Of a stretch of 52,401 bases of DNA, positions 1-20,575 are shown piece after piece. The position numbers and the translations under genes are program-made. Origin of the DNA: Candidatus Levyibacteriota bacterium (GTDB lineage Bacteria; Patescibacteriota; Microgenomatia; Levybacterales; GWA1-39-11); NCBI GenBank assembly GCA_030645455.1, contig JAUSNA010000016.1, forward strand, positions 1 through 52,401. Direction: 5' to 3'. The notes under the pieces are model-generated. The model was not told the DNA's origin, ran no database searches, and saw only the letters and a program-made list of their open reading frames with translations. Every line of letters starts with the position of its first letter. The first letter of the stretch is position 1.

Positions 1-75
1 GGATCGTATTCTATTGCCTTGACTATGATCTTTATGTCCCTAAAAGGTCTTCCCTTTATTTATTTTCAATTCTGA
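1..75 (+). CDS. MBOAT O-acyltransferase, AlgI/PatA/DltB family (3' end only, truncated by window edge)
   Basis: Frame 1 reads GSYSIALTMIFMSLKGLPFIYFQF*. A terminal FIYFQF is characteristic of AlgI/PatA-type MBOATs. The TGA (73-75) overlaps the ATG of the next gene. Confidence 0.8.
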   Translation, partial: GSYSIALTMIFMSLKGLPFIYFQF

Positions 76-1115
76 TGTCACAAAAAGTCTTTCTATTTAC
101 GCTGTTATTTCTGCCAATTGTCGGATTGGAATTATTACTTCATATTAATGCTGACTTTTTTTCACAAATACTTTTGGGAAATTCGTATATTAATTACTGG
201 AAGCAAGCAGCGCCGCGCATAAATTACTGGCCTGATGCTTTAATCATAGGCAGTTCTGTGGCAAGACAAGACCTGAACATGTCTATACTGCAAAACGAAA
301 TCAACAAGCAAGATTTATCCATAAGTATTGGAAATATCTCTCACAACGCAAGCTCAATGTCGCATGAATATCTTACGCTTAAAAGAATTCTTAAGACGTG
401 TAAAAAATGTCCCAAAACGATTATTTTTCAAATAACCGATATTGCGGTTAAGAAGAATGAGATCTGGCTTTGGAAAGAATCAACTCTTGGCGGAATTCAG
501 AATCTATATTTTCCTGATAATGAGATTGATAGTGCTCTTCTTGAAGCATCACTGCTTGATCCGTATTACAAACAATACCTTGAATCCTTGCGCCTGGAAT
601 TACTGTTAAGATTACCTTTCACAAAAGGTAGAATATTAAGTTTTGTAGAAAACAAGATCTATAAACTGCTCAATCTAACTCAAGAAGATAACTACGAACC
701 GGAATTTATTGATGCTCAGGAACAGTACGCATATCCGGAGTACATGGATGAAAAGAAAAAAAGAATTTCAATGTCTTATGGACGTGATGAATTGTCAAAT
801 TACCAAGTTGGCGGTGTAACTCAATTGTTCTTCCATAAGTTCTTAAATCTAGCAAAGAAAAATAATATAAAGGTCATTCTTGTCGTTATGCCTCAGCATA
901 AGGATTATGTTGAGGCATTTGACGAGCACCAAACAATATTTATGGATTTTGTAAATAAAACTGCAAAAAAATATAACCTTACACTTTTAGATCATCGTGA
1001 ATACAACAATACGAATGATCTAATATTTTTTGACTTGACACACCTCAACATCAAGGGGGCTAGCATTTACTCCAAATATATTGGCCTTCAGCTTGCACGT
1101 GAATTAAAAAAATAA
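75..1115 (+). CDS. SGNH-family membrane-anchored protein (DltD/AlgJ/PatB-like acyltransferase partner)
   Basis: N-terminal TM segment, block-I IIGSS nucleophile motif, C-terminal DxxH (FFDLTHLN). Translationally coupled to the MBOAT gene. Confidence 0.75.
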   Translation: MSQKVFLFTLLFLPIVGLELLLHINADFFSQILLGNSYINYWKQAAPRINYWPDALIIGSSVARQDLNMSILQNEINKQDLSISIGNISHNASSMSHEYLTLKRILKTCKKCPKTIIFQITDIAVKKNEIWLWKESTLGGIQNLYFPDNEIDSALLEASLLDPYYKQYLESLRLELLLRLPFTKGRILSFVENKIYKLLNLTQEDNYEPEFIDAQEQYAYPEYMDEKKKRISMSYGRDELSNYQVGGVTQLFFHKFLNLAKKNNIKVILVVMPQHKDYVEAFDEHQTIFMDFVNKTAKKYNLTLLDHREYNNTNDLIFFDLTHLNIKGASIYSKYIGLQLARELKK

Positions 1116-1125
1116 TTATCAACAA

Positions 1126-1161
1126 TCAATTCTTCTATTTGAGAAATGCGGGGATGTTAAA
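1126..1161 (-). repeat. Degenerate copy of the last 12 codons of ftsZ (direct repeat with 1792-1827)
   Basis: 28/36 nt identical to 1792-1827, including a perfect 16-mer AGAAATGCGGGGATGT (1142-1157 = 1808-1823). Minus-strand translation is FNIPAFLK*KN* versus [11 protein letters not shown]. Confidence 0.9.
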
Positions 1162-1199
1162 AAAATCAGATTGCATCTTGAAAGCTGATTTTATTTTTT
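1162..1199 (+). terminator. Probable intrinsic terminator (possibly bidirectional)
   Basis: Stem AAAATCAG (1162-1169) / CTGATTTT (1185-1192) with imperfect inner pairing. Followed by ATTTTTT and preceded by an A-run. Confidence 0.55.
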
Positions 1200-1225
1200 G
1201 ATTGTAAGGTTTAGAAAATATCAAG

Positions 1226-1234
1226 TGATATAAT
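1226..1234 (+). promoter_or_regulatory. Extended -10 promoter (TGaTATAAT) for the protease gene, likely leaderless
   Basis: TGATATAAT ends 5 nt before ATG 1240. No Shine-Dalgarno is visible. Confidence 0.6.
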
Positions 1235-1239
1235 GCGAG

Positions 1240-1791
1240 ATGAATATGTCTCATGAAGCAAAAGCAAGAATCATCCCGCATGGCGAGAAGGCACAAATAC
1301 TGGACTACGCAATAAAAGCAGCTGGTAGTATAGATGCACCTTCTAGCCCTGAGGCGTTCGCTCGGTTTTGTAGAAATCTATTGGGAATTGACGAAAAACA
1401 CGGACTTTTTGGAGACGAAATACATCAACTGGTAGATAAATTAGGCTTACCTCCAACCGCTTTCTTCAACCCAGGAAACCACTGGACGCTTGTTGTAACT
1501 CCTGGGACAGAACAAATGCGTGTATATGACCCAGTGTCTGGCGTACAAGATGTTTCAACCGACACTAATAAACATATTTATTATTCAATGAGTAAGGGGC
1601 TAATGAGACTTAGTAAAGATGGTTTTTGGAATTTTGGAAGGTTGTTGGAAGACAATTACTCATTACCTGAAGAGCCACTTCAACAACTTGGCGGTTTACA
1701 AACAGATGCCTGGAACTGTGGTCCACTTGCAGTATATGCCGCGACTCTTGCACATGGAGAAAAAAGGTTACTTGAGACTAATAAGGTCTGA
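1240..1791 (+). CDS. Ulp1/SENP-like CE-clan cysteine protease
   Basis: Motifs occur in H-D-Q-C order: GNHWTLVV, VYDP, LQTDAWNCG. This matches the HW…(Y)D…QxDxxxCG signature of CE-clan peptidases. Confidence 0.7.
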   Translation: MNMSHEAKARIIPHGEKAQILDYAIKAAGSIDAPSSPEAFARFCRNLLGIDEKHGLFGDEIHQLVDKLGLPPTAFFNPGNHWTLVVTPGTEQMRVYDPVSGVQDVSTDTNKHIYYSMSKGLMRLSKDGFWNFGRLLEDNYSLPEEPLQQLGGLQTDAWNCGPLAVYAATLAHGEKRLLETNKV

Positions 1792-2946
1792 TTAGTTTTT
1801 TTGTCTTAGAAATGCGGGGATGTCAAAGACGGACTCTTCGTCGTCGTTATTATTTCTTGAAGGTTCTTCTGCCTGATACCCTTGATTTGTGGGGGGTTGA
1901 TTTACAAATGGGGAATTGGTTGGTTGCTGCTGGTTGTAATCCTGATTCTGGTCTTCCATAGTACTTTGAACCATTTGCTGAAGCCTCTTTCTTGACTCAT
2001 CAAATCCTGTTGCAATAAGCGTGATTCGAATGCTATCAAAAGCACCTTTATCAATAGTTGCTCCGAAGATGATATTTGCATCAGGATCTGCAGCTTGGGT
2101 AATAATTCTTGAAGCCTCCTCAACCTCTTGAAGAGAAAGATCCTCTCCTCCCGCGATATTAAATAGTACTCCCCGTGCTCCATCCATACTGACCTCAAGA
2201 AGAGGTGATGATATAGCTTGTCTTGCTGCAATTTGCGCTCTGTTTTCTCCAACTCCAACTCCAAGTCCCATTAGAGCCGTACCTGCATCGTTCATAATCG
2301 CCTTTACATCGGCAAAGTCGACATTAACGTATCCGCTTTGAGTAATAAGATCTGAAATTCCCTTTACCCCGTGTCCTAATACCGAGTCGGCAACACGGAA
2401 TGCCTCAAGAAGAGACAATTTCTTGTCCACACTATCCAAAATTCTCTGATTGGGAACAACGATAAGGGTATCTACAAATTCCTTAAGCTCTTCAATTCCC
2501 TCCTCTGCTGCGACCATTCTTCTTGTACCTTCGAAATTAAAAGGTTTTGTAACAACAGCAACAGTCAATGCACCAAGCTCCTTGGCAATCCTTGCAATGA
2601 TGGGGGTTGCACCTGTTCCGGTTCCTCCACCCATTCCGGCCGTAAGAAACACCATATCAGATCCTTCTAAAAATTGCTTTATCCTCTCTGCGCTTTCCTC
2701 AGCAGCTGCTCTCCCAACTTCTGGATTGCCTCCTGATCCTAGTCCGCGTGTAATATTTTCACCAATCTGAAGTTTTGATGCAGCTTGTGAATTGAGAAGT
2801 GCTTGTGCGTCTGTATTAACCGATATAAAATCTACTCCGTCGATTTGTCCGTCTAAGACCATCGAATTCGTAGCATTTCCTCCGCCTCCGCCAATTCCCA
2901 TGACTCTTATTTTTGCGAAACTTGCTGTTTGAGGCTTAATTAACAT
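1792..2946 (-). CDS. ftsZ: Cell division protein FtsZ
   Basis: [16 protein letters not shown], tubulin signature GGGTGTG, NVDFADV, and C-terminal core peptide DIPAFLR. Confidence 0.99.
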
Positions 2947-3011: not shown

Positions 3012-4316
3012 TTAGCGCTTTGGGAGGAATTTTTTGAGCAGCTTGGTAATTGAAGATATTCCTTTAAAGTCAAATTTAAATCCTGTGATCATGCTAGAAA
3101 GACCGGGGCCAGCAACTCCCTCTCCTCTAAAATTTCTCGAGTATTCCAAAAGACCTACTGCAGTTGCAAAAGTAGGTGACTCGACGTCATCAATAAGTCC
3201 TGCGATGTTTTGAGGAACTCCGACCCTAACCGTCATTGACAACATCCTCTTTGCACTATCCTCAGCGCCAACTGTCTTTGCTCCACCGCCTGTAATAACG
3301 AGTCCTGCCGGTGTTTGGGTTGCAAATCCGCTTTTTTTGATTTCCAGTGCAATCATTGTAAATAATTCGTTAAGTCTTGGCTTGATGATACCTTCAACCA
3401 GAGTTTTTGATGAAACTTTTTTTACGTCCTCCGGCAAATGCAACTCATTTAGATCCAACTCGTCTTCCTCTTGTCTGTTCCTTCTCTGGCCGGGCTCAAG
3501 TTCGGGCATTCTCACTCTTTTTGTGTAGTGTTTTGAGAGATAAAGCTTTATTTTTTCAGCACTTTCGAGGGAAATCTTAAGTCCAATCGCCAAGTCATTT
3601 GTTATATGCCGTGCTCCGATCGGCACAACGCTTGTGTAGGAAAGTGACCCGTCGACATAAATTGCTATATTGGTAACCCCGGCACCGATATCAGCCAAAA
3701 CTACTCCCAATTCTTTTTCAGTATCCGAAAGAACAGATAGTGAGGACGCAAGCCCCGCAAAAACAAGACTTTGGACGTTGACTCCAGCCTCAGAGGATAA
3801 AATTTTCTCTACATTTTTAACACCTGCGGAATTAGCTGTGATAATATGAGTGTCAACCTCAAGTCTTACGCCTGACATACCAACCGGATCCTTTATTCCC
3901 CCCTCACCGTCAACCGTAAATGTTTTTGGTATAACGTGGATAATTTCTCTGGTTGAGGGAAGACTCACAGCTCCTGCTGCCTCCAATACTCTTTCAACGT
4001 CGTATTCGGAGATTTCACCGTCAGGCTGACTGACTGCAACTACCCCTTTTGAATTTTGAGACTCGATATTTACCCCCGAAACTGAAACAAAAACACGGTC
4101 AATTGAGTGACCGGCCATCCGTTCCGCGCTATCTAATGAGGTATTAATTGCATCGGATGCCTCTTCAATATTTACAATTTGGCCTTTTTTAACACCTTTT
4201 GAAAGAGATTCTGATACTCCCAGAATATTTATGATGTCTTCATCAATGCGGCCGATAAGAGTTGCGATTTTTGAGGATCCAATATCAATCCCCACGACAA
4301 TATCAGCATTTTTCAT
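3012..4316 (-). CDS. ftsA: Cell division protein FtsA
   Basis: GIDIGSSKI, DIGAGVT, ITNDLAIGL and ITGGGA motifs. Lies upstream of ftsZ. Confidence 0.98.
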   Translation of the reverse strand: MKNADIVVGIDIGSSKIATLIGRIDEDIINILGVSESLSKGVKKGQIVNIEEASDAINTSLDSAERMAGHSIDRVFVSVSGVNIESQNSKGVVAVSQPDGEISEYDVERVLEAAGAVSLPSTREIIHVIPKTFTVDGEGGIKDPVGMSGVRLEVDTHIITANSAGVKNVEKILSSEAGVNVQSLVFAGLASSLSVLSDTEKELGVVLADIGAGVTNIAIYVDGSLSYTSVVPIGARHITNDLAIGLKISLESAEKIKLYLSKHYTKRVRMPELEPGQRRNRQEEDELDLNELHLPEDVKKVSSKTLVEGIIKPRLNELFTMIALEIKKSGFATQTPAGLVITGGGAKTVGAEDSAKRMLSMTVRVGVPQNIAGLIDDVESPTFATAVGLLEYSRNFRGEGVAGPGLSSMITGFKFDFKGISSITKLLKKFLPKR

Positions 4317-4848: not shown

Positions 4849-5935
4849 ATAATTCTATTTGTTCAATTATCTTGTCGGCCGCATCTTGGTGTACATATTT
4901 TGATGCATCCGCAGCTTTTTTGGCATATTTTTCTCTATTATTTATCATAGCATGTATTAGCGCGACAAGACCCTCTCTTGTTACGTCTTTTTGCTCAAGA
5001 AATTCACCCATACCCGTATTTACATAAAGCTTGGCATTGTCTTTTTGCTCACTTTTTTGACCATGCGGCAAGGGAATAAGAAGACCAACAGCGCCTGTTG
5101 CCATAAGCTCCAAAACAGTATTTGCACCTGACCGCGAAATTACAAGAACTGCGTTTTGAAAAAAAGATGCAACTTCTTGAGGTGAAAAAAATTCGGAAAC
5201 AGTATATTTTTTTGAATATTCGAGAGACAAAGTCTTTTTAAATTGTGTCAACGTTGCAAAATCATTAAATTCAGCAGCATTACCTGTCTGGTGAACAACG
5301 GAGTACTTATTAAGCAATTCGGGTAAAATAGAATATATCGTTTCATTAATAAAATGCGCCCCAGTACTACCGCCCGTTATGTATATAAAAGGTTTTGTGA
5401 TGGCTAGAGGAAGAGCATTATCCTCAAAAATTTCACTGCGCAATGGGTTTCCTGTCAAAACAGTATTTGCATTTTTGAAGTATTCCCTTGATGCTTCATA
5501 AGACAGACAGACAACTCGCGCAATACGCGCAATTGCTTTTGATGCCAGTCCTGCTCGTTGAGTTTGTTCATGAAGAACGACCGGTATGCGAAGTAATGAT
5601 GCGGCAACGGCTACCGGAAGACCAACGTAGCCGCCAAATGTAACTATAACATCAGGTTTGAACTCCATAAGTATTTTATATGCACTATATATCCCTCTCG
5701 GAAAACGCAGGAGTGGGGGAACGGAATGTAGGGTAAATTTCCGCTGTAGCCTACCCGCATTTATTTCCTTAAATGAAATTCTTTCTCTCTGACAGACTTT
5801 ATACTCATAAGTTTCATTAACTTCTCCTTCAAAGGCATATTTTCTTCCTACTACCAAAATATCATTATCACTTTTTATTTTTTGAATAACCGAATACGCA
5901 GGACTGAAATGCCCTCCCGTAATAACAATTCTCAT
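4811..5935 (-). CDS. murG: Lipid I GlcNAc transferase MurG
   Basis: ITGGHFSPA, GGYVGLP, LHEQ, TGNPLR, TGGSTGA, SRSGANT and EQKDNA motifs. Confidence 0.96.
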   Translation of the reverse strand: MRIVITGGHFSPAYSVIQKIKSDNDILVVGRKYAFEGEVNETYEYKVCQRERISFKEINAGRLQRKFTLHSVPPLLRFPRGIYSAYKILMEFKPDVIVTFGGYVGLPVAVAASLLRIPVVLHEQTQRAGLASKAIARIARVVCLSYEASREYFKNANTVLTGNPLRSEIFEDNALPLAITKPFIYITGGSTGAHFINETIYSILPELLNKYSVVHQTGNAAEFNDFATLTQFKKTLSLEYSKKYTVSEFFSPQEVASFFQNAVLVISRSGANTVLELMATGAVGLLIPLPHGQKSEQKDNAKLYVNTGMGEFLEQKDVTREGLVALIHAMINNREKYAKKAADASKYVHQDAADKIIEQIELYGKRGSSGVRPT

Positions 5936-5970
5936 GATCTCCTCCTTCTGAGTCTCCCAAGTGTCCCTCT

Positions 5971-7077
5971 TTAAATTCGGTGAAGTGAACTATTTTTTCT
6001 CGGCGTAACACTTTTATCAAGGGCAATATTAAGCAGTAATCCTATTGCAACGAAATTTATAAGCATTGAGCTTCCACCATACGAAATAAATGGCAACGGT
6101 ACACCGGTCAAAGGAATAAGAATCGCCTGCGATGCAAGATTTATGAGCGTTTGAATGGTCAGAAAAACCGTAATTCCTGTTGCCATAAGCTTCCCAAATT
6201 GAGTCTTTGCATTCATCGCAATCATGATCCCTATTGCCGATAAGCTCATGTATAGACCAACCAAAATTACACTACCGATATATCCGGCTTCTTCAGCAAA
6301 AATTGCAAAAATTGAATCTGTCGTGTGCTCAGGCAAATACGCGTACTTCTGTACTGAATTTCCAAACCCAACGCCGCTTAATCCCCCCGACCCAAGGGCA
6401 ATTACAATTTGCTTGGTGTGATATGAGGTAGTGTCCAAGTTATTTACATCAACATTTTGAAAAGCCGTCATCCTTTGCACTCGGTATGGCGATGCCCCTG
6501 CAACTAGCACCACACCCAATATTCCCACCAGTAAAATCGGTGCTATCTCACGTATAGAGGCACCTGAGACAAAATATACGATAAATGAAGTTGCACCGAT
6601 AATAATGGAAGTTTTAAGATCGGGCTGGAGCAAAACAAGACCGCACGCAACACCAATCAGTAGCAGTAGCGCGGGCAGTCTTCCTTTTTCTTTGACGCTC
6701 AACCACGACGCAAGATATAAAGACAAAGTAATTTTTAATAGCTCGGAAGGCTGAAATACTGAAATACCAAGATTGATCCACCTGCGGGATCCGTTGAGCT
6801 CAAGTCCAATCCCCGGCAGAAAAACCAAAACAAGAAACCCTAAAGTTGTCAAAAGAAGCGGTAGGGATAAATTGTATAAAAAACTTTCCTTAAGACGGGA
6901 TACAAAAAGAGCAGCAACCATCCCAAGTGCGATCCAAATACTTTGGTTTTTGATAAAGTAATATTTATCTTTCAAATCTAGCTGTGCGGTGTAAGAAGAA
7001 CTATCGTAAAGAATAAAAAGTCCAAGAGTTGTGAGAATACAAATTAAGACAAGCAGGGACAGGACGAGTCTGTTCAT
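5971..7077 (-). CDS. ftsW: SEDS family peptidoglycan polymerase FtsW
   Basis: RRWI, FQPSELLK, QPD, YLPEHTTDSIF and TGVPLPFISYGGSS motifs. Confidence 0.96.
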   Translation of the reverse strand: MNRLVLSLLVLICILTTLGLFILYDSSSYTAQLDLKDKYYFIKNQSIWIALGMVAALFVSRLKESFLYNLSLPLLLTTLGFLVLVFLPGIGLELNGSRRWINLGISVFQPSELLKITLSLYLASWLSVKEKGRLPALLLLIGVACGLVLLQPDLKTSIIIGATSFIVYFVSGASIREIAPILLVGILGVVLVAGASPYRVQRMTAFQNVDVNNLDTTSYHTKQIVIALGSGGLSGVGFGNSVQKYAYLPEHTTDSIFAIFAEEAGYIGSVILVGLYMSLSAIGIMIAMNAKTQFGKLMATGITVFLTIQTLINLASQAILIPLTGVPLPFISYGGSSMLINFVAIGLLLNIALDKSVTPRKNSSLHRI

Positions 7078-8085
7078 TTAATTTATGAAAGCAAGATAAA
7101 GACCAACCATTGCAAAAGCAAATCCCATAAGCCAACCGCGCATAACAACTTTTGGCTCTTCCCAACCCTTCTTGAGAAAATACAGATGGAGAGGTGCAAT
7201 GGGAAAAGCTTTTCTCTTGAGGAACTTTTTAGAAAGTATTTGAATCAAAGAAGAACCGACTTCAACTACATATACTCCGCCAATTACGGCAACGGCAATT
7301 TCTTTTCCGGTTAGAAGCCCTATTACGGCAAGCGCCGCTCCTAAAGATAGAGACCCTACGTCCCCGAGCCAAAGACGTGCTTTGTAAATATTAAAATAAA
7401 GAAATGCCCCGACGGAACCCAGTAAAATTGCTATATAGATAGCAAGAAATTCATTAAGTAATGACTTTGAAATAACTAGAAATGCACAAAGACAAATAAG
7501 GAGCACACCGCTTGCCAATCCATCAAGTCCATCCGTAATATTGAAAGCATTAGTAAAGCTGACGATAACAAATGCCGCAAAAAGGATATAGAGGGGCCCG
7601 AGCATGATTTCCCCCATAGCAGGGATGTGTACAAAAGTGTAGCCGTTGGCGTACATAACCCACCCGACTATCAATGCTAGTACCCACTGAATAACAAATT
7701 TATGCTTAAAGCGCAGACCAAAAAATCCGGTCCTCTCAACATTAAGAATTTTTTTAAGGTCGTCATAAAAACCTAACGCGCCAAAACCGATAAAAGTAAA
7801 AAGGAGCACAAATATCTCCCACAGTCTTACCTGTACACTAAAAAGTCCATAAGCCCACAAGGTCAAAAGGGTGACAACAAAAATTATAAGTAGCCCACCG
7901 CCGATTGGCGTTCCTACTTTCCATTCATGCAATTTATCAAAAACATAAGTTCTATTATTAAAAATGTCCCTCGTTTTTTGCTTTTGGCGTTGCATTTTCA
8001 TACGGTACAAAAAGTCGATAAAGGGGACTATTAAAATTGAGGTTATAAAAAGTGAAAGAATTACAAATCCAAATACTTTATCCAT
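7078..8085 (-). CDS. mraY: Phospho-N-acetylmuramoyl-pentapeptide transferase MraY
   Basis: TPIGGG, GFYDD, NITDGLDGLA, GDVGS and WEEPKVV motifs. ATG at 8085; an alternative TTG start lies at 8118. Confidence 0.95.
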   Translation of the reverse strand: MDKVFGFVILSLFITSILIVPFIDFLYRMKMQRQKQKTRDIFNNRTYVFDKLHEWKVGTPIGGGLLIIFVVTLLTLWAYGLFSVQVRLWEIFVLLFTFIGFGALGFYDDLKKILNVERTGFFGLRFKHKFVIQWVLALIVGWVMYANGYTFVHIPAMGEIMLGPLYILFAAFVIVSFTNAFNITDGLDGLASGVLLICLCAFLVISKSLLNEFLAIYIAILLGSVGAFLYFNIYKARLWLGDVGSLSLGAALAVIGLLTGKEIAVAVIGGVYVVEVGSSLIQILSKKFLKRKAFPIAPLHLYFLKKGWEEPKVVMRGWLMGFAFAMVGLYLAFIN

Positions 8086-8124
8086 ATTGGTTGACACGCT
8101 CAATTGAATGAGCAACAAGGCTGA

Positions 8125-8153
8125 ATTATACAGTCTATCCTTATATTTTACAA
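8125..8153 (-). promoter_or_regulatory. Sigma70-type internal promoter upstream of mraY
   Basis: TTGTAA (8153-8148), 17-nt spacer, TATAAT (8130-8125). Confidence 0.6.
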
Positions 8154-10890: not shown

Positions 10891-12359
10891 TTTTTTAAAT
10901 TGTAGGCTATTTTATACACATCCCCAGCACCCATTGTGACAATTATATAGTCATCTGAGGTGAAGTTTTGCCCTACGTATTCTACCACATCGGAAAACTT
11001 TTCAAAAAATTCTGTATCTACTTTTTCCCTATGAGCATTAACATATTCTTCAACTGAGAGGTTATCTTTTTCGGTATCACGTGCTGATTTGAAGACGGGA
11101 AGAAGTAGGAGCTTATGTACTTTCCGAAAAGCGTTTCCAAACTCGGGAAGTAGAGCTTTTGTTCGTGAATAGGTATGGGGTTGAAAAATACAAACAAGTT
11201 TTTTTTCAGGATATGCCTGCTGGATGGATTCTACGGTCGTTTCAATCTCTAATGGATGATGTCCATAGTCATCAATAACGAGCGCTCCTCCTGAAGTTTT
11301 CCCTACAATTTCTGTCCTTCTTTTTGTCCCCCTAAATTCACGCAAACATATTCTTATTTTCTCCGATTCAAATCCTAATTCGGTAAGAAGTACGATAACC
11401 GATAAGGCATTTTTTGCATTGTGAGCACCCGGGATCGAAAGCTCAAAATGCCCCAGTTCTTTTCCTTTTCTTAGTACATTAAATCTTGATGACAAACCAT
11501 GTGAAACTATCTGAGAAATTGTATAGTCGTTATGCGGTTTCTCACCATATGTAATTACCGATATGTCTTTTCCAATTTGATCTTTGAATTTTGAAAGATA
11601 TTGATCGTCACCATTTACTAAAAGTTTGCCACCGCTTTTTATATTGTGTGCTAATTCTTCAAAAGCACTTACAATTTGGTCTATATTCTCGAAAAGATCC
11701 GGATGGTCAAAATCAATATTATTAAATATTGCGTATGTTGGTTGCTGATAAAGAAATTTTGGGATCCGGTCGTGCGTAGGTTCCGAAGCGTATTCATCGG
11801 ATTCCACAACAAAAAATTCCCCATTCCCTAGATGTCCCGGGGCACCCAAAGGAAAAACTTCGCCTGTACCAACGCTGTAAGAGGGATCAAGACCCATGGC
11901 TTTGAGTGTGGTTGCGAGAAGAGAAGAAATAGTTGTCTTTCCATGTGATCCAGCTACTGCTATTGACTTAAATGATTTTCCAATAATTTCACCTTCCATA
12001 AAGATAGCCAGTGCCTGTCCCTGAGATAGATACGCTATCCCATTTTCCTTTGCCCATTTTACTTGAGGGTTATCAAAACCTTTATGTGCACCTGTTTTCA
12101 CAACGAGACACTTATTCTTATCTGTTTATCCGAAAAAATCCGATATAATAACCTCACTAAATCCGGTATTAATCTTTATGTTATTTTTAAGAAGATAATG
12201 GTCCGTTATAAATTCTTCACCAATATCTGAACCCTCAATTTCAAAGCCGCATCCCTTGGCTATAAGAGCTAATGGAGCAACACCCACTCCTTTAATTCCG
12301 ACAAAAAATATTTTCTGAATATTTTGAAAAGTAGGCAATATTTTTAAATCGTATTTCAT
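10887..12359 (-). pseudogene. murC: UDP-MurNAc-L-alanine ligase MurC interrupted by one in-frame TAA at 12126-12128 (or a sequencing error)
   Basis: The 77-aa ORF (FVGIKGVGVAPLA) and the 404-aa ORF (GSHGKTT, ESDEY, DFDHPD, DDYGHHP, FQPHTYSRT, MGAGD) are in the same frame: …DFFG*TDKNKCLVVKTGAH…. Confidence 0.85.
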
Positions 12360-17662: not shown

Positions 17663-20575
17663 TTATGGATTTACTTCCCGCCATTTTGTGTAAGTAGTCT
17701 TATAAAAATCTGTTAATTGTATAAGAAAGTCCGGCCTGGACACGACATACAGAGAAGGATAATTGAGATTTTCGATGCACAAACTTCTATCATTATGGAT
17801 AATTCCAGTACCCGAAGCCGCAAAAGGCTTAAGGCTATTTGCAACCAATGCTCCACCAATGTTGAGCCTTTTATCAGGATTTTCCCCGTCAGCGCATCCT
17901 CCACCATTGATATAAATACTTCCCTGGGCAGTGTAATACCCATCCAAATTGCTTGCCGTAGAAGTAACAACCGCAGCTCCAATTTCACCAACGATTGTTA
18001 TGTTCCTCTTTGCCGCAACAATAAATATACCCTGATTAATTGGTACAGAAATTGGTGTAGTAATTGTGACATTGCCATTAACCAAAATTACCACCCTTCT
18101 TCCATTCACATGATTATATGAATTTATGACAAGGTCTCCATTTGATTCGTATACACCGTTACCTACAATCTGATCTTGTTCAAGAATTCCAGGGACTAGA
18201 GGTGTTACCGTTACCCCATCCTGATAGGCCTTTGCCTTATAAAAGTCGTATGACATTCCACCATTTCTATTCACAGTATTTGAGTTAAATAAATACTCAT
18301 TGTTAACAACCCATTGCTTGATTGATGCAGATGCATCCCCACCACTACCTAAATCCACATTACTACTAGATGAATAAAATATCCCGGGAAAAGCTGACGC
18401 CTGAGGAGTATTCACGTTCTCACCCAAAGAGCCATATTTACCTGCAGGTATAGGATTTGTAAGATTGACAAATCTAACGTCTCCTAGATCTGTTTGGAAC
18501 CAGGGATCAATCGGCGCAATACAAAATACCGCTGTTTGACTTGTACTTCCTGTTGCAAATGACAATCTATTAGTTCCAATTGCCGACTCAACTGCAGGTG
18601 ATACATCGGTTCCGAGCACACTGTATCCGGCAGGAACCTGTAGAGTTAGTTGATAATTCCCTTGAGGAAGACATGTAAATGCAGTTGAACCTGATCCCCC
18701 ATTCGTCGTCTGATTTAGATTGACCGATCCACTATTGTTTATATTAAGAGTCGCCCCTGTGCCACCGATACCACTATAGGGATTGCCGCTTGAGGTATTG
18801 CACGCACCAACGCTTGTTACGCTTCTTACATGAGCTGTAACGCCTACTGTTGCCGGAACAGTAATTGATGTATTGTAGCTTGTAGTACCCCCCGCCCCTC
18901 CTACTGTTACTTGAGGCCTATAGGTAGTGAGTGTGCTTGGACAATTTGGAGCCGTCCAGTTGGTGGTGCTGCTAGTTGGAGTATCCGTCTGCACACCCAA
19001 TGTGGGTGGCGGATTATTTCCATTTATATCCGGGTTCCAACTAAATGGAGGAGGAGGAACTCCATTGTTGGGATTTTCGACATCTGTGCAAGATGTAACC
19101 GATAGCGTTGATGTCCCACCAGGACTTACAAAAGCAGGAATAGCCGAAAGTCCACCGGTGCACACGGGGAGGTTCTGCCTTATTCCAAAATTTATTGTTG
19201 GGCTAGAATTATTGAGCACTGTCGACTTTCCGGCGGGAGGATTTGTTAGGATATAACCAGAGGGGACAGTAAGTGTCACCGTATAACTACCATTTGCAAG
19301 AGCTCCAAATGAATAAGCACCAGTGCCACTTGAAGTAGTATTTGCACTTGCCGCACCACCAAGAACAATGGCTGCACCCCCATGTCCACTTTCTCCAATG
19401 TCTTTTGTGCCGTTTGAATTGGTATCGATAAATACAGCACCACTGATAGTATTTCCGGTCCACAATCCAAAATTAATGCCCGAATCGCCCTTTGAAGCAG
19501 TGCGTGAAGATGGAATTGAAATGTACCCGGTAAGTCCAATTGGAGACAACGTGTAACTTGTAGTTCCCCAAAGTACGGGCACCGAATAAGCACCTCCTCC
19601 ACCTGTTGTGACGACCTGCGTATCGAATGCTGAATTGGCATAAGACAAAATCAAAATGCCTGAGGCAGGCGAATCGCTTCCATTTTGAATACCGTCTCCA
19701 TTTAGGTCATAAAAAACCATTCCCGAAATATCAGTTGCAGGTGCAGGTCCGCCGCCAAATCCTCCTCCAGGGATACATGCCGCTGGCGGTCCACCATAGC
19801 AAATGTCTCCAGAGGCGCAACAAACTTGCCCAAACTCAACATATCCACACAGACTACATCCTCCGCCACCACCTGGTGGTGGAGGTGGTGGAGGCCCTCC
19901 GCCACCACCTGGAGAGGGAACAGGGCATATCCCCGACCCAGGTGCGCAATAAGTACAATCATTGCAGAAATTACCACTTACAGTACGCACATCATTGCAT
20001 GTGCCGCCTGCACCACAATACGTATCGGTACCCACACCACAACCGGTGCATGCCGTTCCCGAGCAGTATGAACCGGGAGTACAACTTCCTCCTGGGGGTG
20101 AGGTTGGTGAAGGAGAGCTACATGTTCCAGGCACTATCCCTCCGGTTGTGCAAGAGCTACCACTGCATACACCATAACACTCACAGGCATTTCCACTTCC
20201 ATCGGTACATGCTCGGTTAAAACAGTTTGAAGGCCCACATGATGATCCTCCTCCACTTGTGCATCCATCATACAAAAGACAACTCCCCCCGCCTCCACCA
20301 TAACCACATCCATACGCCCCACAGGAAGATATTCCTCCGCTGCCGGAACAAGATCTATCAAGTGCTCCAACCGGCGCCTGACACCTAGTTTCAGAAGCGC
20401 CACAACCAAGACTACCGCAAGGACATAAATTTCCACCGGAATCAAAACAACCAGTTACCGAATCACCGCAAGCAAATGTGCCGCTACAGCTCTGTGCTTG
20501 AACAGTGATAACTCTTACAAAGAAACCAGAGATAATTAAAGATAAAACAAGTAGCAGAAAAATAACTTTTCGCAT
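17663..20575 (-). CDS. Large secreted surface protein: Cys/Gly-rich tip, SdrD-B/Cna-B-like domains and a beta-rich C-terminal domain
   Basis: Signal peptide; 36 Cys in about aa 30-268; two repeats ISGMVFYDLNGDG / ISGAVFIDTNSNG (SdrD-B-like); C-terminal domain starting PWFQTDLGDV. Confidence 0.8.
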   Translation of the reverse strand: MRKVIFLLLVLSLIISGFFVRVITVQAQSCSGTFACGDSVTGCFDSGGNLCPCGSLGCGASETRCQAPVGALDRSCSGSGGISSCGAYGCGYGGGGGSCLLYDGCTSGGGSSCGPSNCFNRACTDGSGNACECYGVCSGSSCTTGGIVPGTCSSPSPTSPPGGSCTPGSYCSGTACTGCGVGTDTYCGAGGTCNDVRTVSGNFCNDCTYCAPGSGICPVPSPGGGGGPPPPPPPGGGGGCSLCGYVEFGQVCCASGDICYGGPPAACIPGGGFGGGPAPATDISGMVFYDLNGDGIQNGSDSPASGILILSYANSAFDTQVVTTGGGGAYSVPVLWGTTSYTLSPIGLTGYISIPSSRTASKGDSGINFGLWTGNTISGAVFIDTNSNGTKDIGESGHGGAAIVLGGAASANTTSSGTGAYSFGALANGSYTVTLTVPSGYILTNPPAGKSTVLNNSSPTINFGIRQNLPVCTGGLSAIPAFVSPGGTSTLSVTSCTDVENPNNGVPPPPFSWNPDINGNNPPPTLGVQTDTPTSSTTNWTAPNCPSTLTTYRPQVTVGGAGGTTSYNTSITVPATVGVTAHVRSVTSVGACNTSSGNPYSGIGGTGATLNINNSGSVNLNQTTNGGSGSTAFTCLPQGNYQLTLQVPAGYSVLGTDVSPAVESAIGTNRLSFATGSTSQTAVFCIAPIDPWFQTDLGDVRFVNLTNPIPAGKYGSLGENVNTPQASAFPGIFYSSSSNVDLGSGGDASASIKQWVVNNEYLFNSNTVNRNGGMSYDFYKAKAYQDGVTVTPLVPGILEQDQIVGNGVYESNGDLVINSYNHVNGRRVVILVNGNVTITTPISVPINQGIFIVAAKRNITIVGEIGAAVVTSTASNLDGYYTAQGSIYINGGGCADGENPDKRLNIGGALVANSLKPFAASGTGIIHNDRSLCIENLNYPSLYVVSRPDFLIQLTDFYKTTYTKWREVNP

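Follow-up and report, generated by a model that had tools for sequence, protein, structure and literature searches.

The insert at the 3' end of ftsZ described here is most probably a site-specific integration scar in the ftsZ tail, that is, a decayed, integrase-less and CIME-like remnant of a tyrosine-integrase element. It lies in a stretch of 52,401 nucleotides, called the window here. The inserted DNA is bounded by two copies of the codons for the FtsZ C-terminal peptide, one of which ends the ftsZ gene itself (the live tail) while the other stands alone (the orphan tail; Table 1). The target gene is left intact, and the tail of its product has the same ending as 11 tails from the same genus. 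More widely, 34 of 34 tails at ftsZ loci (30 relatives plus G001, G004 and G006) end in R(Q/N)(K/R)N followed by a stop.

Table 1. Features at and around the ftsZ insertion site, in window coordinates
Feature	Position	Strand	Remarks
DltD/DUF1574-like gene	75..1115	+	lineage-specific cargo
Orphan FtsZ tail	1126..1161	-	attR-type junction; core 1142-1157
Insert body	1162..1791		630 nt between repeats; without integrase
Cargo gene	1240..1791	+	183 aa; convergent with ftsZ, stop codons abutting
Live FtsZ tail	1792..1827	-	attL-type junction; core 1808-1823
ftsZ, target gene	1792..2946	-	intact, 384 aa; Pfam Tubulin 3.7e-49, FtsZ_C 8.4e-35
ftsA, upstream of ftsZ	3012..4316	-	93% identical to the gene upstream of ftsZ in G007

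The earlier note had described the two tails as direct repeats 666 nt apart, identical at 28 of 36 positions and sharing a perfect core of 16 nt, and this description is borne out in every part. A repeat search over window positions 900-2100 returned a single direct-repeat family (1125-1161 and 1791-1827, 78% identity over 37 nt). The core, AGAAATGCGGGGATGT, occurs in exactly two copies in the window, and the 1.195-Mb assembly from which the window comes (G000) holds no further copy at fewer than two mismatches. A chance origin of the repeat is ruled out, as 0.03 copies are expected by chance at up to two mismatches and none of 100 shuffles gave two. Direct repeats that share an identical core and flank the inserted DNA are characteristic of a tyrosine-integrase element. 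A dif/Xer-like reading of the core was unconvincing on inspection by eye.

Read on the minus strand, the live copy is the end of the FtsZ open reading frame and the orphan copy encodes FNIPAFLK-stop-KN-stop, again as first described. The orphan carries two changes that disable it as a coding end (AGA to AAA and CAG to TAG), which suggest that the insertion is old. Counted by eye, the two copies are identical at 23 of 30 positions from IPAFL to the stop; this divergence falls within the range of the other live and orphan pairs, so that age cannot be measured from identity alone. The proposal that the orphan is another allele of the tail is consistent with the pattern in relatives, in which 14 other live and orphan pairs likewise differ mostly at synonymous positions. 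Such a pattern would follow from one copy having belonged to the host and the other to the element.

A different view of the orphan tail would make it the end of a small protein that mimics the FtsZ C-terminal peptide and competes for its binding partners. There is indeed a minus-strand reading frame of 53 aa (1135-1296, TTG start) that ends in FFNIPAFLK, but the peptidase gene on the opposite strand starts inside it, and it has no Pfam match. Moreover, at least eight other orphans have an in-frame stop within 14 codons before the tail (for instance L-stop-IPAFL in G006 and F-stop-stop-ELKL in G043), which indicates that orphan tails are generally untranslated as parts of proteins. We consider such mimicry extremely improbable.

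A terminator, a promoter and one protease gene had been placed between the repeats. The single gene stands, as it is the sole sizeable open reading frame in the insert, and its assignment as a protease is plausible at the weak level of similarity given below; the two regulatory signals find no support. The putative terminator hairpin at 1159-1195 (-6.8 kcal/mol, z 0.12) is no more stable than those of shuffled sequences and was missed by a terminator scan, and the region before the cargo gene has nothing convincing as a promoter (two sites versus 1.8 expected). The arrangement as a whole finds support in a 1682-nt Logan contig of run X1, which covers window positions 278-1959 and probably stems from the same sample as the window. 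Because this contig spans both repeats and the insert, and was made by a separate assembler, albeit from data that are not independent, an artefact of one assembler's scaffolding is ruled out. Runs X2 and X3 gave only ftsZ fragments of other organisms. The contigs of the three runs (depth about 6.6), a form of data that drops rare forms, showed neither the 666-nt skip that excision would leave nor a circle junction.

The same site was examined in relatives of the same genus, in which a YgjP-like gene (PF01863, 3.2e-54) is conserved as the next gene downstream of ftsZ. Both an empty site and alternative cargo were found, as would be expected of an integration site. In G010, a single tail is followed after 37 nt by ygjP, and in six other genomes (G004, G012, G001, G011, G006 and G005) 1.4 to 8.7 kb lie between ftsZ and ygjP. 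The genes in this interval are mostly unshared among the six, with three common to G011 and G012. In G006, a tyrosine integrase (PF00589 4.7e-30; phrog_1 3e-49) is encoded 170 nt past the live tail, and an orphan tail lies 7.8 kb downstream, directly before ygjP. The ygjP gene of G000 is on a second contig (C2, 13204-13866), the end of which abuts the start of the window. Between the orphan tail and this gene lies lineage-specific cargo, composed of the DltD/DUF1574-like gene and an MBOAT gene at the end of C2; no third FtsZ tail was found near ygjP on C2 at up to four mismatches in 18 nt. Contigs of three genomes of the genus (G003, G006 and G009) terminate within the core, and in G006 another contig begins 55 nt upstream of the end of the core-ending one. 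From these contig ends we infer that the assembly graph branches at the ftsZ core; a mobile-DNA landing site at this position would account for the way in which assemblies of these MAGs repeatedly break off where ftsZ ends.

The integrase of G006 belongs to a family that is closely associated with the FtsZ tail. Of the 245 genomes of the order, 30 encode homologues of it (E<=1e-20), and a tail of the IPAFLRQ(K/R)N-stop type lies within 1.5 kb of the integrase in 24 of these 30 loci, with ftsZ itself there in 19. By way of control, distant tyrosine recombinases (at most 34% identity, 3-kb flanks) have a tail in none of 78 loci; two close homologues (60% and 48% identity) both have one. The closest named homologue is on a contig titled Candidatus Gottesmanbacteria. 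The tail search covered 20 regions retrieved around integrases, and 13 elements of 5.6-14.3 kb, that of G006 included, are bounded by two tails. Taken with the empty site of G010, the 24 loci and the 13 two-tail elements document a shared site in its occupied and unoccupied states. The suggestion that the FtsZ tail served as an attachment site is thus upheld, since the integrase elements of relatives occupy the same codons between a live and an orphan tail.

The position of the core can also be compared across these pairs. In 10 of the 14 other live and orphan pairs, the longest identical run (9-15 nt) begins no more than 3 nt from the Ile codon, and the 16-nt core of the window occupies the same position as the runs of those 10. 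In the pairs of G104, G127 and G139 the longest run (17-31 nt) is shifted towards the 3' end, and the G006 pair, by eye, has a 17-nt run from the Ile codon. Microhomology, which the earlier note had offered beside an attachment site, becomes superfluous as an explanation because a site-specific recombinase family has its core at the same place. The same comparison bears on a local duplication or illegitimate recombination, in which the tail would have been copied by slippage or microhomology repair during the capture of foreign DNA. Such an event would be in keeping with the shortness of the repeat and with an insert that has neither a recombinase nor recognisable element arms, but not with an identical stretch placed where, in 10 of 14 other pairs, the run begins at the Ile codon. 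Nor does it explain why the differences beyond the core are mostly synonymous, as a fresh copy would be identical and a decayed copy would have no synonymous bias. We regard local duplication as very unlikely.

The origin that we propose begins with a circular DNA that would have entered the last codons of ftsZ site-specifically, by recombination within the core ACATCCCCGCATTTCT, the codons for Ile-Pro-Ala-Phe, so that the two repeats would be junctions of the attL and attR type. The recombinase would have been a tyrosine integrase from the family that acts on the ftsZ site across the same CPR order. The incoming DNA would have brought its own codons for the part beyond the core (LRQKN-stop) and, under a Campbell model, positions 1792-1807 would have arrived with the insert. 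Because it carried this replacement end, FtsZ would have stayed whole and the host's end would have been displaced; the original end of ftsZ would now lie 666 nt downstream as the orphan (the post-core part of 1126-1161), having gained its two disabling substitutions after the insertion. The insert itself may have lost its integrase, or may never have had one, and would have kept one cargo gene. Since relatives hold integrase-bearing elements at the same spot, the window insert, which has no integrase inside it, may be regarded as an integrase-less leftover or hitch-hiker. Its arrival through this integrase family, and its status as a remnant as opposed to a satellite, we infer.

Two further searches define how closely the insert is tied to the elements of relatives. 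A profile (nhmmer) built from the element-side arms (75 nt each) of 16 orphan tails left the window arm unmatched even at E<=100, so that only the core and the tail codons connect the insert to integrase-bearing elements. A resemblance, seen by eye, of AGCTTTCAAG in the window arm to AGCTTCAAAG at a similar distance in several elements was dropped when the same 16-arm profile gave no match at this threshold. A search of G000 for the cognate integrase gave only distant recombinases on other contigs, the best of them 26% identical to the G006 integrase (E 1.6e-9). The assembly is 88% complete, and the cognate enzyme could therefore have escaped.

These results also bear on the idea of a minimal cassette that lacks an integrase, which describes the present state of the insert correctly, whereas movement in that form would be a further supposition. 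Stated fully, the idea is that of a satellite, a mobile 666-bp unit composed of an att site and one gene that is moved in trans by co-resident integrases targeting ftsZ; in this it would resemble integron cassettes and Xer-dependent modules, which use an enzyme encoded elsewhere. In favour of a satellite, the core is intact over 16 nt, and there is a second small integrase-less insert in G079. Bounded by the live tail and another tail, this 762-nt insert forms a tandem with an adjoining integrase element of 7.0 kb and contains a Fic/Doc gene (PF02661 2.7e-19) and a small upstream open reading frame; its element-side arm is, by eye, like the arms of full elements. The window arm, on the other hand, has no similarity to full elements, the cognate integrase is missing from the G000 assembly, and neither the cassette nor its gene has another copy in the relatives and phylum genomes searched. 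Excision through the disabled orphan would, in addition, leave an FtsZ ending in FLK-stop, which departs from the ending common to all 34 tails. The disabled orphan, the missing cognate integrase and the unmatched arm make a decayed remnant at least as likely as a minimal cassette, and we judge the trans-mobilised mini-cassette to be unlikely and rank it below the CIME-like remnant.

A more general proposal, which we hold to be doubtful, is that the ftsZ tail is a site of cassette capture, at which integrase-less units of about 0.7-1 kb are captured, stacked and exchanged by integrases that larger elements supply in trans. The content of such a unit would be one gene or one toxin-antitoxin pair together with a copy of the tail core. 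If true, the 666-bp unit of the window and the 762-bp Fic/Doc unit of G079 would be two such cassettes, and CPR bacteria would have an integron-like economy that operates on a protein-coding attB.

The cargo gene of the window is rare. It is absent from 60 relatives, including 12 of the same genus, from 400 sampled genomes of the phylum and from the integrase-bearing elements found, and no homologues were seen in IMG/VR or in a metagenome scan with a 6-row alignment. One close homologue, P0002 (70% identity by BLASTP, 67% in the alignment), is on a 2890-nt contig. The window protein has no match to any Pfam family at E<=1, the family C48 model included, or to any NCBIfam model. Among 30 sequences of the cargo family, Peptidase_C39 is matched by four members and Peptidase_C48 (PF02902, best E 0.003) by two, and a profile of the 30 matches SENP1 at E 0.007. 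C160 is shared by all of these 30 sequences and Q154 by at least 90% of them, and H81 and D97 are invariant in the six closest; His81, Asp97, Gln154 and Cys160 follow the same residue order as in the Ulp1/SENP peptidases (clan CE, family C48). For the predicted structure (pLDDT 87.6), the ten best VIA-align rows all belong to the CE clan (NopD, CidB, SENP8, pS273R, SENP5, SENP3, OtDUB, XopD, Ulp1 and SENP1), with Z of 4.1-5.0 over 92-109 residues and rmsd of 3.6-5.4, values of Z below 8 being ones that, by the tool's own note, may reflect a common arrangement. Foldseek against the PDB gave no match to the model at E<=0.001. The cargo may tentatively be described as a cysteine peptidase of a rare family, weakly similar to the Ulp1/SENP type (CE clan).

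Our analysis indicates that, across an order of CPR bacteria with small genomes, mobile DNA lands in the coding sequence of the FtsZ C-terminal peptide, with a hypervariable cargo slot directly behind the division genes as the outcome. Among the cargo identified to date are a Fic/Doc toxin gene, a rare peptidase and an MBOAT/DltD-like pair, and the accessory genes of these genomes may be located by a simple marker, either a second tail or an integrase of the family. A coding attB in two allelic copies, both readable through selection, also provides a natural system in which to study how cells tolerate integration into an essential gene. The window copy is a modest example and is probably dead.

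Several known systems invite comparison. An integron cassette, which is marked by an imperfect inverted repeat (attC) at its end and depends on an IntI integrase with attI and a promoter before the array, differs from the window insert, the flanks of which are direct copies of a coding tail and the sole inverted repeat of which, by the orphan, is the shuffle-like hairpin described above. The islands and prophages that target tRNA and tmRNA genes by means of tyrosine integrases are comparable, since there, too, the conserved 3' end of an essential and conserved gene is the attB and is restored by the element, and the site likewise gathers different cargo in each lineage. The conserved sequence here is instead protein-coding and, as the attB encodes an FtsZ peptide, its copies drift synonymously and both keep the peptide. 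Site-specific integration within a protein-coding gene is likewise seen in e14 and the lambdoid phages 21 and NC-SV at icd of E. coli. Elements of the e14/phage 21 type supply a new 3' end for icd and displace the old one, which stays behind as a pseudo-end, and the integration strategy itself is thus already known. In contrast to these elements, the system described here targets ftsZ and its duplication is confined to the last 5-9 codons, and the window insert is 666 bp long with neither integrase nor phage genes. A literature search, judged at abstract level, found no publication that names ftsZ as such an integration target.

A further counterpart is the CIME. As defined in PMC5704250, a CIME is a decay product of a complete integrative element that is without integration and transfer genes, retains attL and attR and can be excised or moved by the integrase of a neighbouring element, and in the ICESt1-related elements of Streptococcus thermophilus a new element can integrate beside a remnant of this type (PMC5704250). 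The present system differs from ICESt1 in that no conjugation genes were seen in the one relative element annotated, that of G006, and from a CIME in that the descent of the window insert from a larger element is presumed and the arm profile is negative. The likeness is nevertheless twofold: the window insert has no integrase and keeps both junctions, as a CIME does, and the small insert of G079, in tandem with an integrase element, matches the tandem accretion described for CIMEs.

The 3' end of ftsZ is present twice in the window, once as the working end of the gene (the live tail) and once as a second, displaced copy (the orphan tail), and the two enclose a 666-bp insert with one cargo gene (see table). 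A repeat search finds one direct-repeat family in 900-2100, with a spacing of 666 and 78% identity over 37 nt, and this, together with the open reading frames, bears out the earlier note on the repeats, the second tail and the single intervening gene. The ftsZ and cargo genes are convergent and their stop codons touch. The 16-nt core (AGAAATGCGGGGATGT) occurs in the window solely within the two tails; with up to two mismatches, 0.03 matches are expected in window shuffles, and two were reached in 0 of 100 shuffles. Contig C41 of assembly G000 (1.195 Mb, 88% complete) begins with the window as its first 52 kb; elsewhere in this assembly there is no closer copy of the core. The arrangement is reproduced in an independent assembly of run X1, a 1682-nt contig of which covers 278-1959 with repeats and insert; the window itself probably derives from that run. 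The terminator and promoter also proposed between the repeats fared less well: the hairpin at 1159-1195 has -6.8 kcal/mol and a z of 0.12 against shuffles, consensus scanning places no terminator there, and it gave no convincing promoter.

Features at the ftsZ 3' end in the window, in contig C2 of the same assembly and in relatives
Feature	Location	Strand	Remarks
ftsZ	1792-2946	minus	384 aa; Pfam Tubulin 3.7e-49, FtsZ_C 8.4e-35
ftsA	3012-4316		upstream of ftsZ
Live FtsZ tail	1792-1827	minus	final 12 codons of ftsZ
Orphan FtsZ tail	1126-1161		reads FNIPAFLK*KN*
16-nt core	1142-1157; 1808-1823
Cargo gene	1240-1791	plus	183 aa; sole gene between repeats
DltD/DUF1574-like gene	75-1115 (module stretch 3-1115)		continues MBOAT module of C2
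MBOAT gene	G000:C2:14027-15349		PF03062, 6.8e-28; runs off contig C2 end
ygjP	G000:C2:13204-13866
G079 small insert	L090 (G079:C12) 19197-19976		between live ftsZ tail and second tail; no integrase
G079 third tail	L090 (G079:C12) 12163-12180		end of integrase element
G005 integrase	L042 (G005:C3) 7071-8138
G006 phrog_3364/DUF4325 pair	L043 (G006:C3) 5761-7169

The suggestion that the FtsZ tail serves as an attachment site proves right, in that the integrase-bearing elements of relatives are bounded by tails at the same codons. In G006, a genome of the same genus, a second contig that overlaps the end of the ftsZ contig by 55 nt carries the tail and, 170 nt on, a 340-aa tyrosine integrase (PF00589, 4.7e-30; phrog_1, 3e-49); an orphan tail lies 7.8 kb downstream, immediately before ygjP. 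The same element encodes a 357-aa phrog_3364 protein (2.1e-28), followed directly by a DUF4325 STAS-like protein (4.5e-9), which is possibly a defence module. Homologues of the G006 integrase (E<=1e-20) occur in 30 of 245 genomes of the order. Within 1.5-kb flanks of the 30 loci, a ..IPAFLRQ[KR]N*-type tail is found in 24 and ftsZ itself in 19; the six with neither include two recombinases of 26-27% identity and two on contigs that end near the integrase. The integrase adjoins the live tail in either orientation (12 of the 19 ftsZ-holding loci co-directional, 7 convergent). In a control scan of named genomes (80 recombinase loci, 3-kb flanks), an integrase-adjacent tail occurs only in the two close homologues, one 60% identical and on a contig with the title Candidatus Gottesmanbacteria, the other 48% identical and in a MAG labelled Gammaproteobacteria, and in 0 of the 78 distant loci. 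The 48%-identical integrase (L105, CAYHKI010000009.1, binned 'uncultured Gammaproteobacteria') lies about 230 nt past the FtsZ tail DIPTFLRQIR*; this bin may be mislabelled, or the family may extend outside the CPR.

Regions of up to 20 kb around 20 family integrases, together with G006, contain 13 elements bounded by two tails (5.6-14.3 kb, G006 included). Live ftsZ begins 11 of them, and lies outside the available stretch in G068 and G139. Live and orphan tails were compared in 14 other pairs and in the window's own. In 10 of the 14, the longest identical run is 9-15 nt and starts no more than 3 nt away from the Ile codon, the position also held by the window's core; in G104, G127 and G139 it is further 3' (17-31 nt), and in the G006 pair it is, by eye, 17 nt long and starts at the Ile codon. 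Most differences between live and orphan copies are at synonymous positions, and 15 of 16 orphans, G068 being the exception, still encode IP(A)FLR(Q/N)(K/R)N*. The window's orphan, described earlier as another allele of the tail, does show synonymous-type changes against the consensus LRQKN*; added to these are two disabling ones (AGA>AAA, CAG>TAG), which are absent from the other orphans. Under a Campbell model, the live-tail codons past the core would have arrived with the insert, and the orphan codons past the core would be the host's original ftsZ end. Most integrase elements carry a conserved AGCACC..GGTGCT hairpin and T-run just past the new ftsZ stop (L085-L103), which has the look of a substitute ftsZ terminator.

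ftsZ was detected in all 40 relatives searched, and its downstream region was compared in 12 (10 congeneric, 2 from the same family), where the conserved downstream gene encodes a YgjP-like metallopeptidase (PF01863, 3.2e-54). The distance from ftsZ stop to ygjP is 37 nt in G010, an empty site with a single tail, and about 1.4 kb in G004, 2.4 kb in G001, 2.5 kb in G012, 4.6 kb in G011, 7.9 kb in G006 and 8.7 kb in G005; the genes in the interval differ between genomes almost throughout, three being common to G011 and G012. In the G005 interval, a family integrase of 39% identity lies at 6 kb from the tail and no second tail is recognisable, an arrangement suggestive of older insertions here that have since eroded. 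In G000, ygjP is followed by the MBOAT gene; the window's DltD-like gene continues this module, so the order is ftsZ, insert, orphan tail, DltD-like gene, MBOAT gene, ygjP. The two module genes form an O-acyltransferase pair between orphan tail and ygjP, and the DltD-like gene was not found downstream of ftsZ in any of the 12 relatives. In three assemblies of the same genus, a contig (G009:C5, G003:C17, G006:C7) breaks off within the tail core (..GACATCCCCGCATT, ..GACATCCCCGC, ..GACATCCC), which looks like assembly-graph branching from presence and absence of inserts in the sampled populations.

The cargo gene was found in none of 60 relatives (12 of the same genus) and none of 400 sampled genomes of the phylum. 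Among 5.8 billion clustered proteins its product has a single close relative, 70% identical by BLASTP and 67% identical in an alignment; among 1.84 billion representatives, 47 relatives reach E<=0.001. Across 30 sequences C160 does not vary and Q154 hardly does, and all six of the closest share H81 and D97. With the structure predicted from these 30 sequences (pLDDT 87.6), Foldseek gave no match at E<=0.001, and every one of the ten best VIA-align rows is a clan-CE peptidase, at weak Z scores of 4.1-5.0. The family profile matches SENP1 at E 0.007, and Pfam assigns Peptidase_C39 to 4 and Peptidase_C48 to 2 of the 30 members. 'Ulp1/SENP-like cysteine peptidase' serves reasonably well as a working label and does not imply family membership.

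The 666-bp unit is likely an att scar, left by integration at the ftsZ tail. This reading has its limits: the insert has no integrase gene; G000, at 88% completeness, has no close homologue of the family (best 26% identical); the window's arm is not picked up by a profile built from 16 element-side arms; and no excision junction of the unit is seen in the contigs, which could not have shown one. Given such a scar, we therefore favour an integrase-less remnant, resembling a cis-mobilizable element (CIME), of an insertion by the tail-targeting integrase family. The less probable alternative, a cassette mobilised in trans as a satellite, stays alive because in G079 a 762-nt insert that lacks an integrase and an integrase element of 7.0 kb are arranged in tandem; the 762-nt insert carries an 80-aa upstream ORF and a gene of the Fic/Doc family (PF02661, 2.7e-19), co-directional with ftsZ.

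At the level of listings and abstracts, a full-text literature search returned no paper in which ftsZ is named as a target of integration; the strategy is known, and ftsZ as its target is apparently unreported. The elements e14, phage 21 and NC-SV, at icd, restore the 3' end of the gene. That these three integrate inside a protein gene is established (PMC12803456), and CIMEs are described as integrase-less remnants that keep attL and attR, with tandem accretion beside them (PMC5704250). The window's copy is an ordinary, probably inactive example of this known integration strategy.
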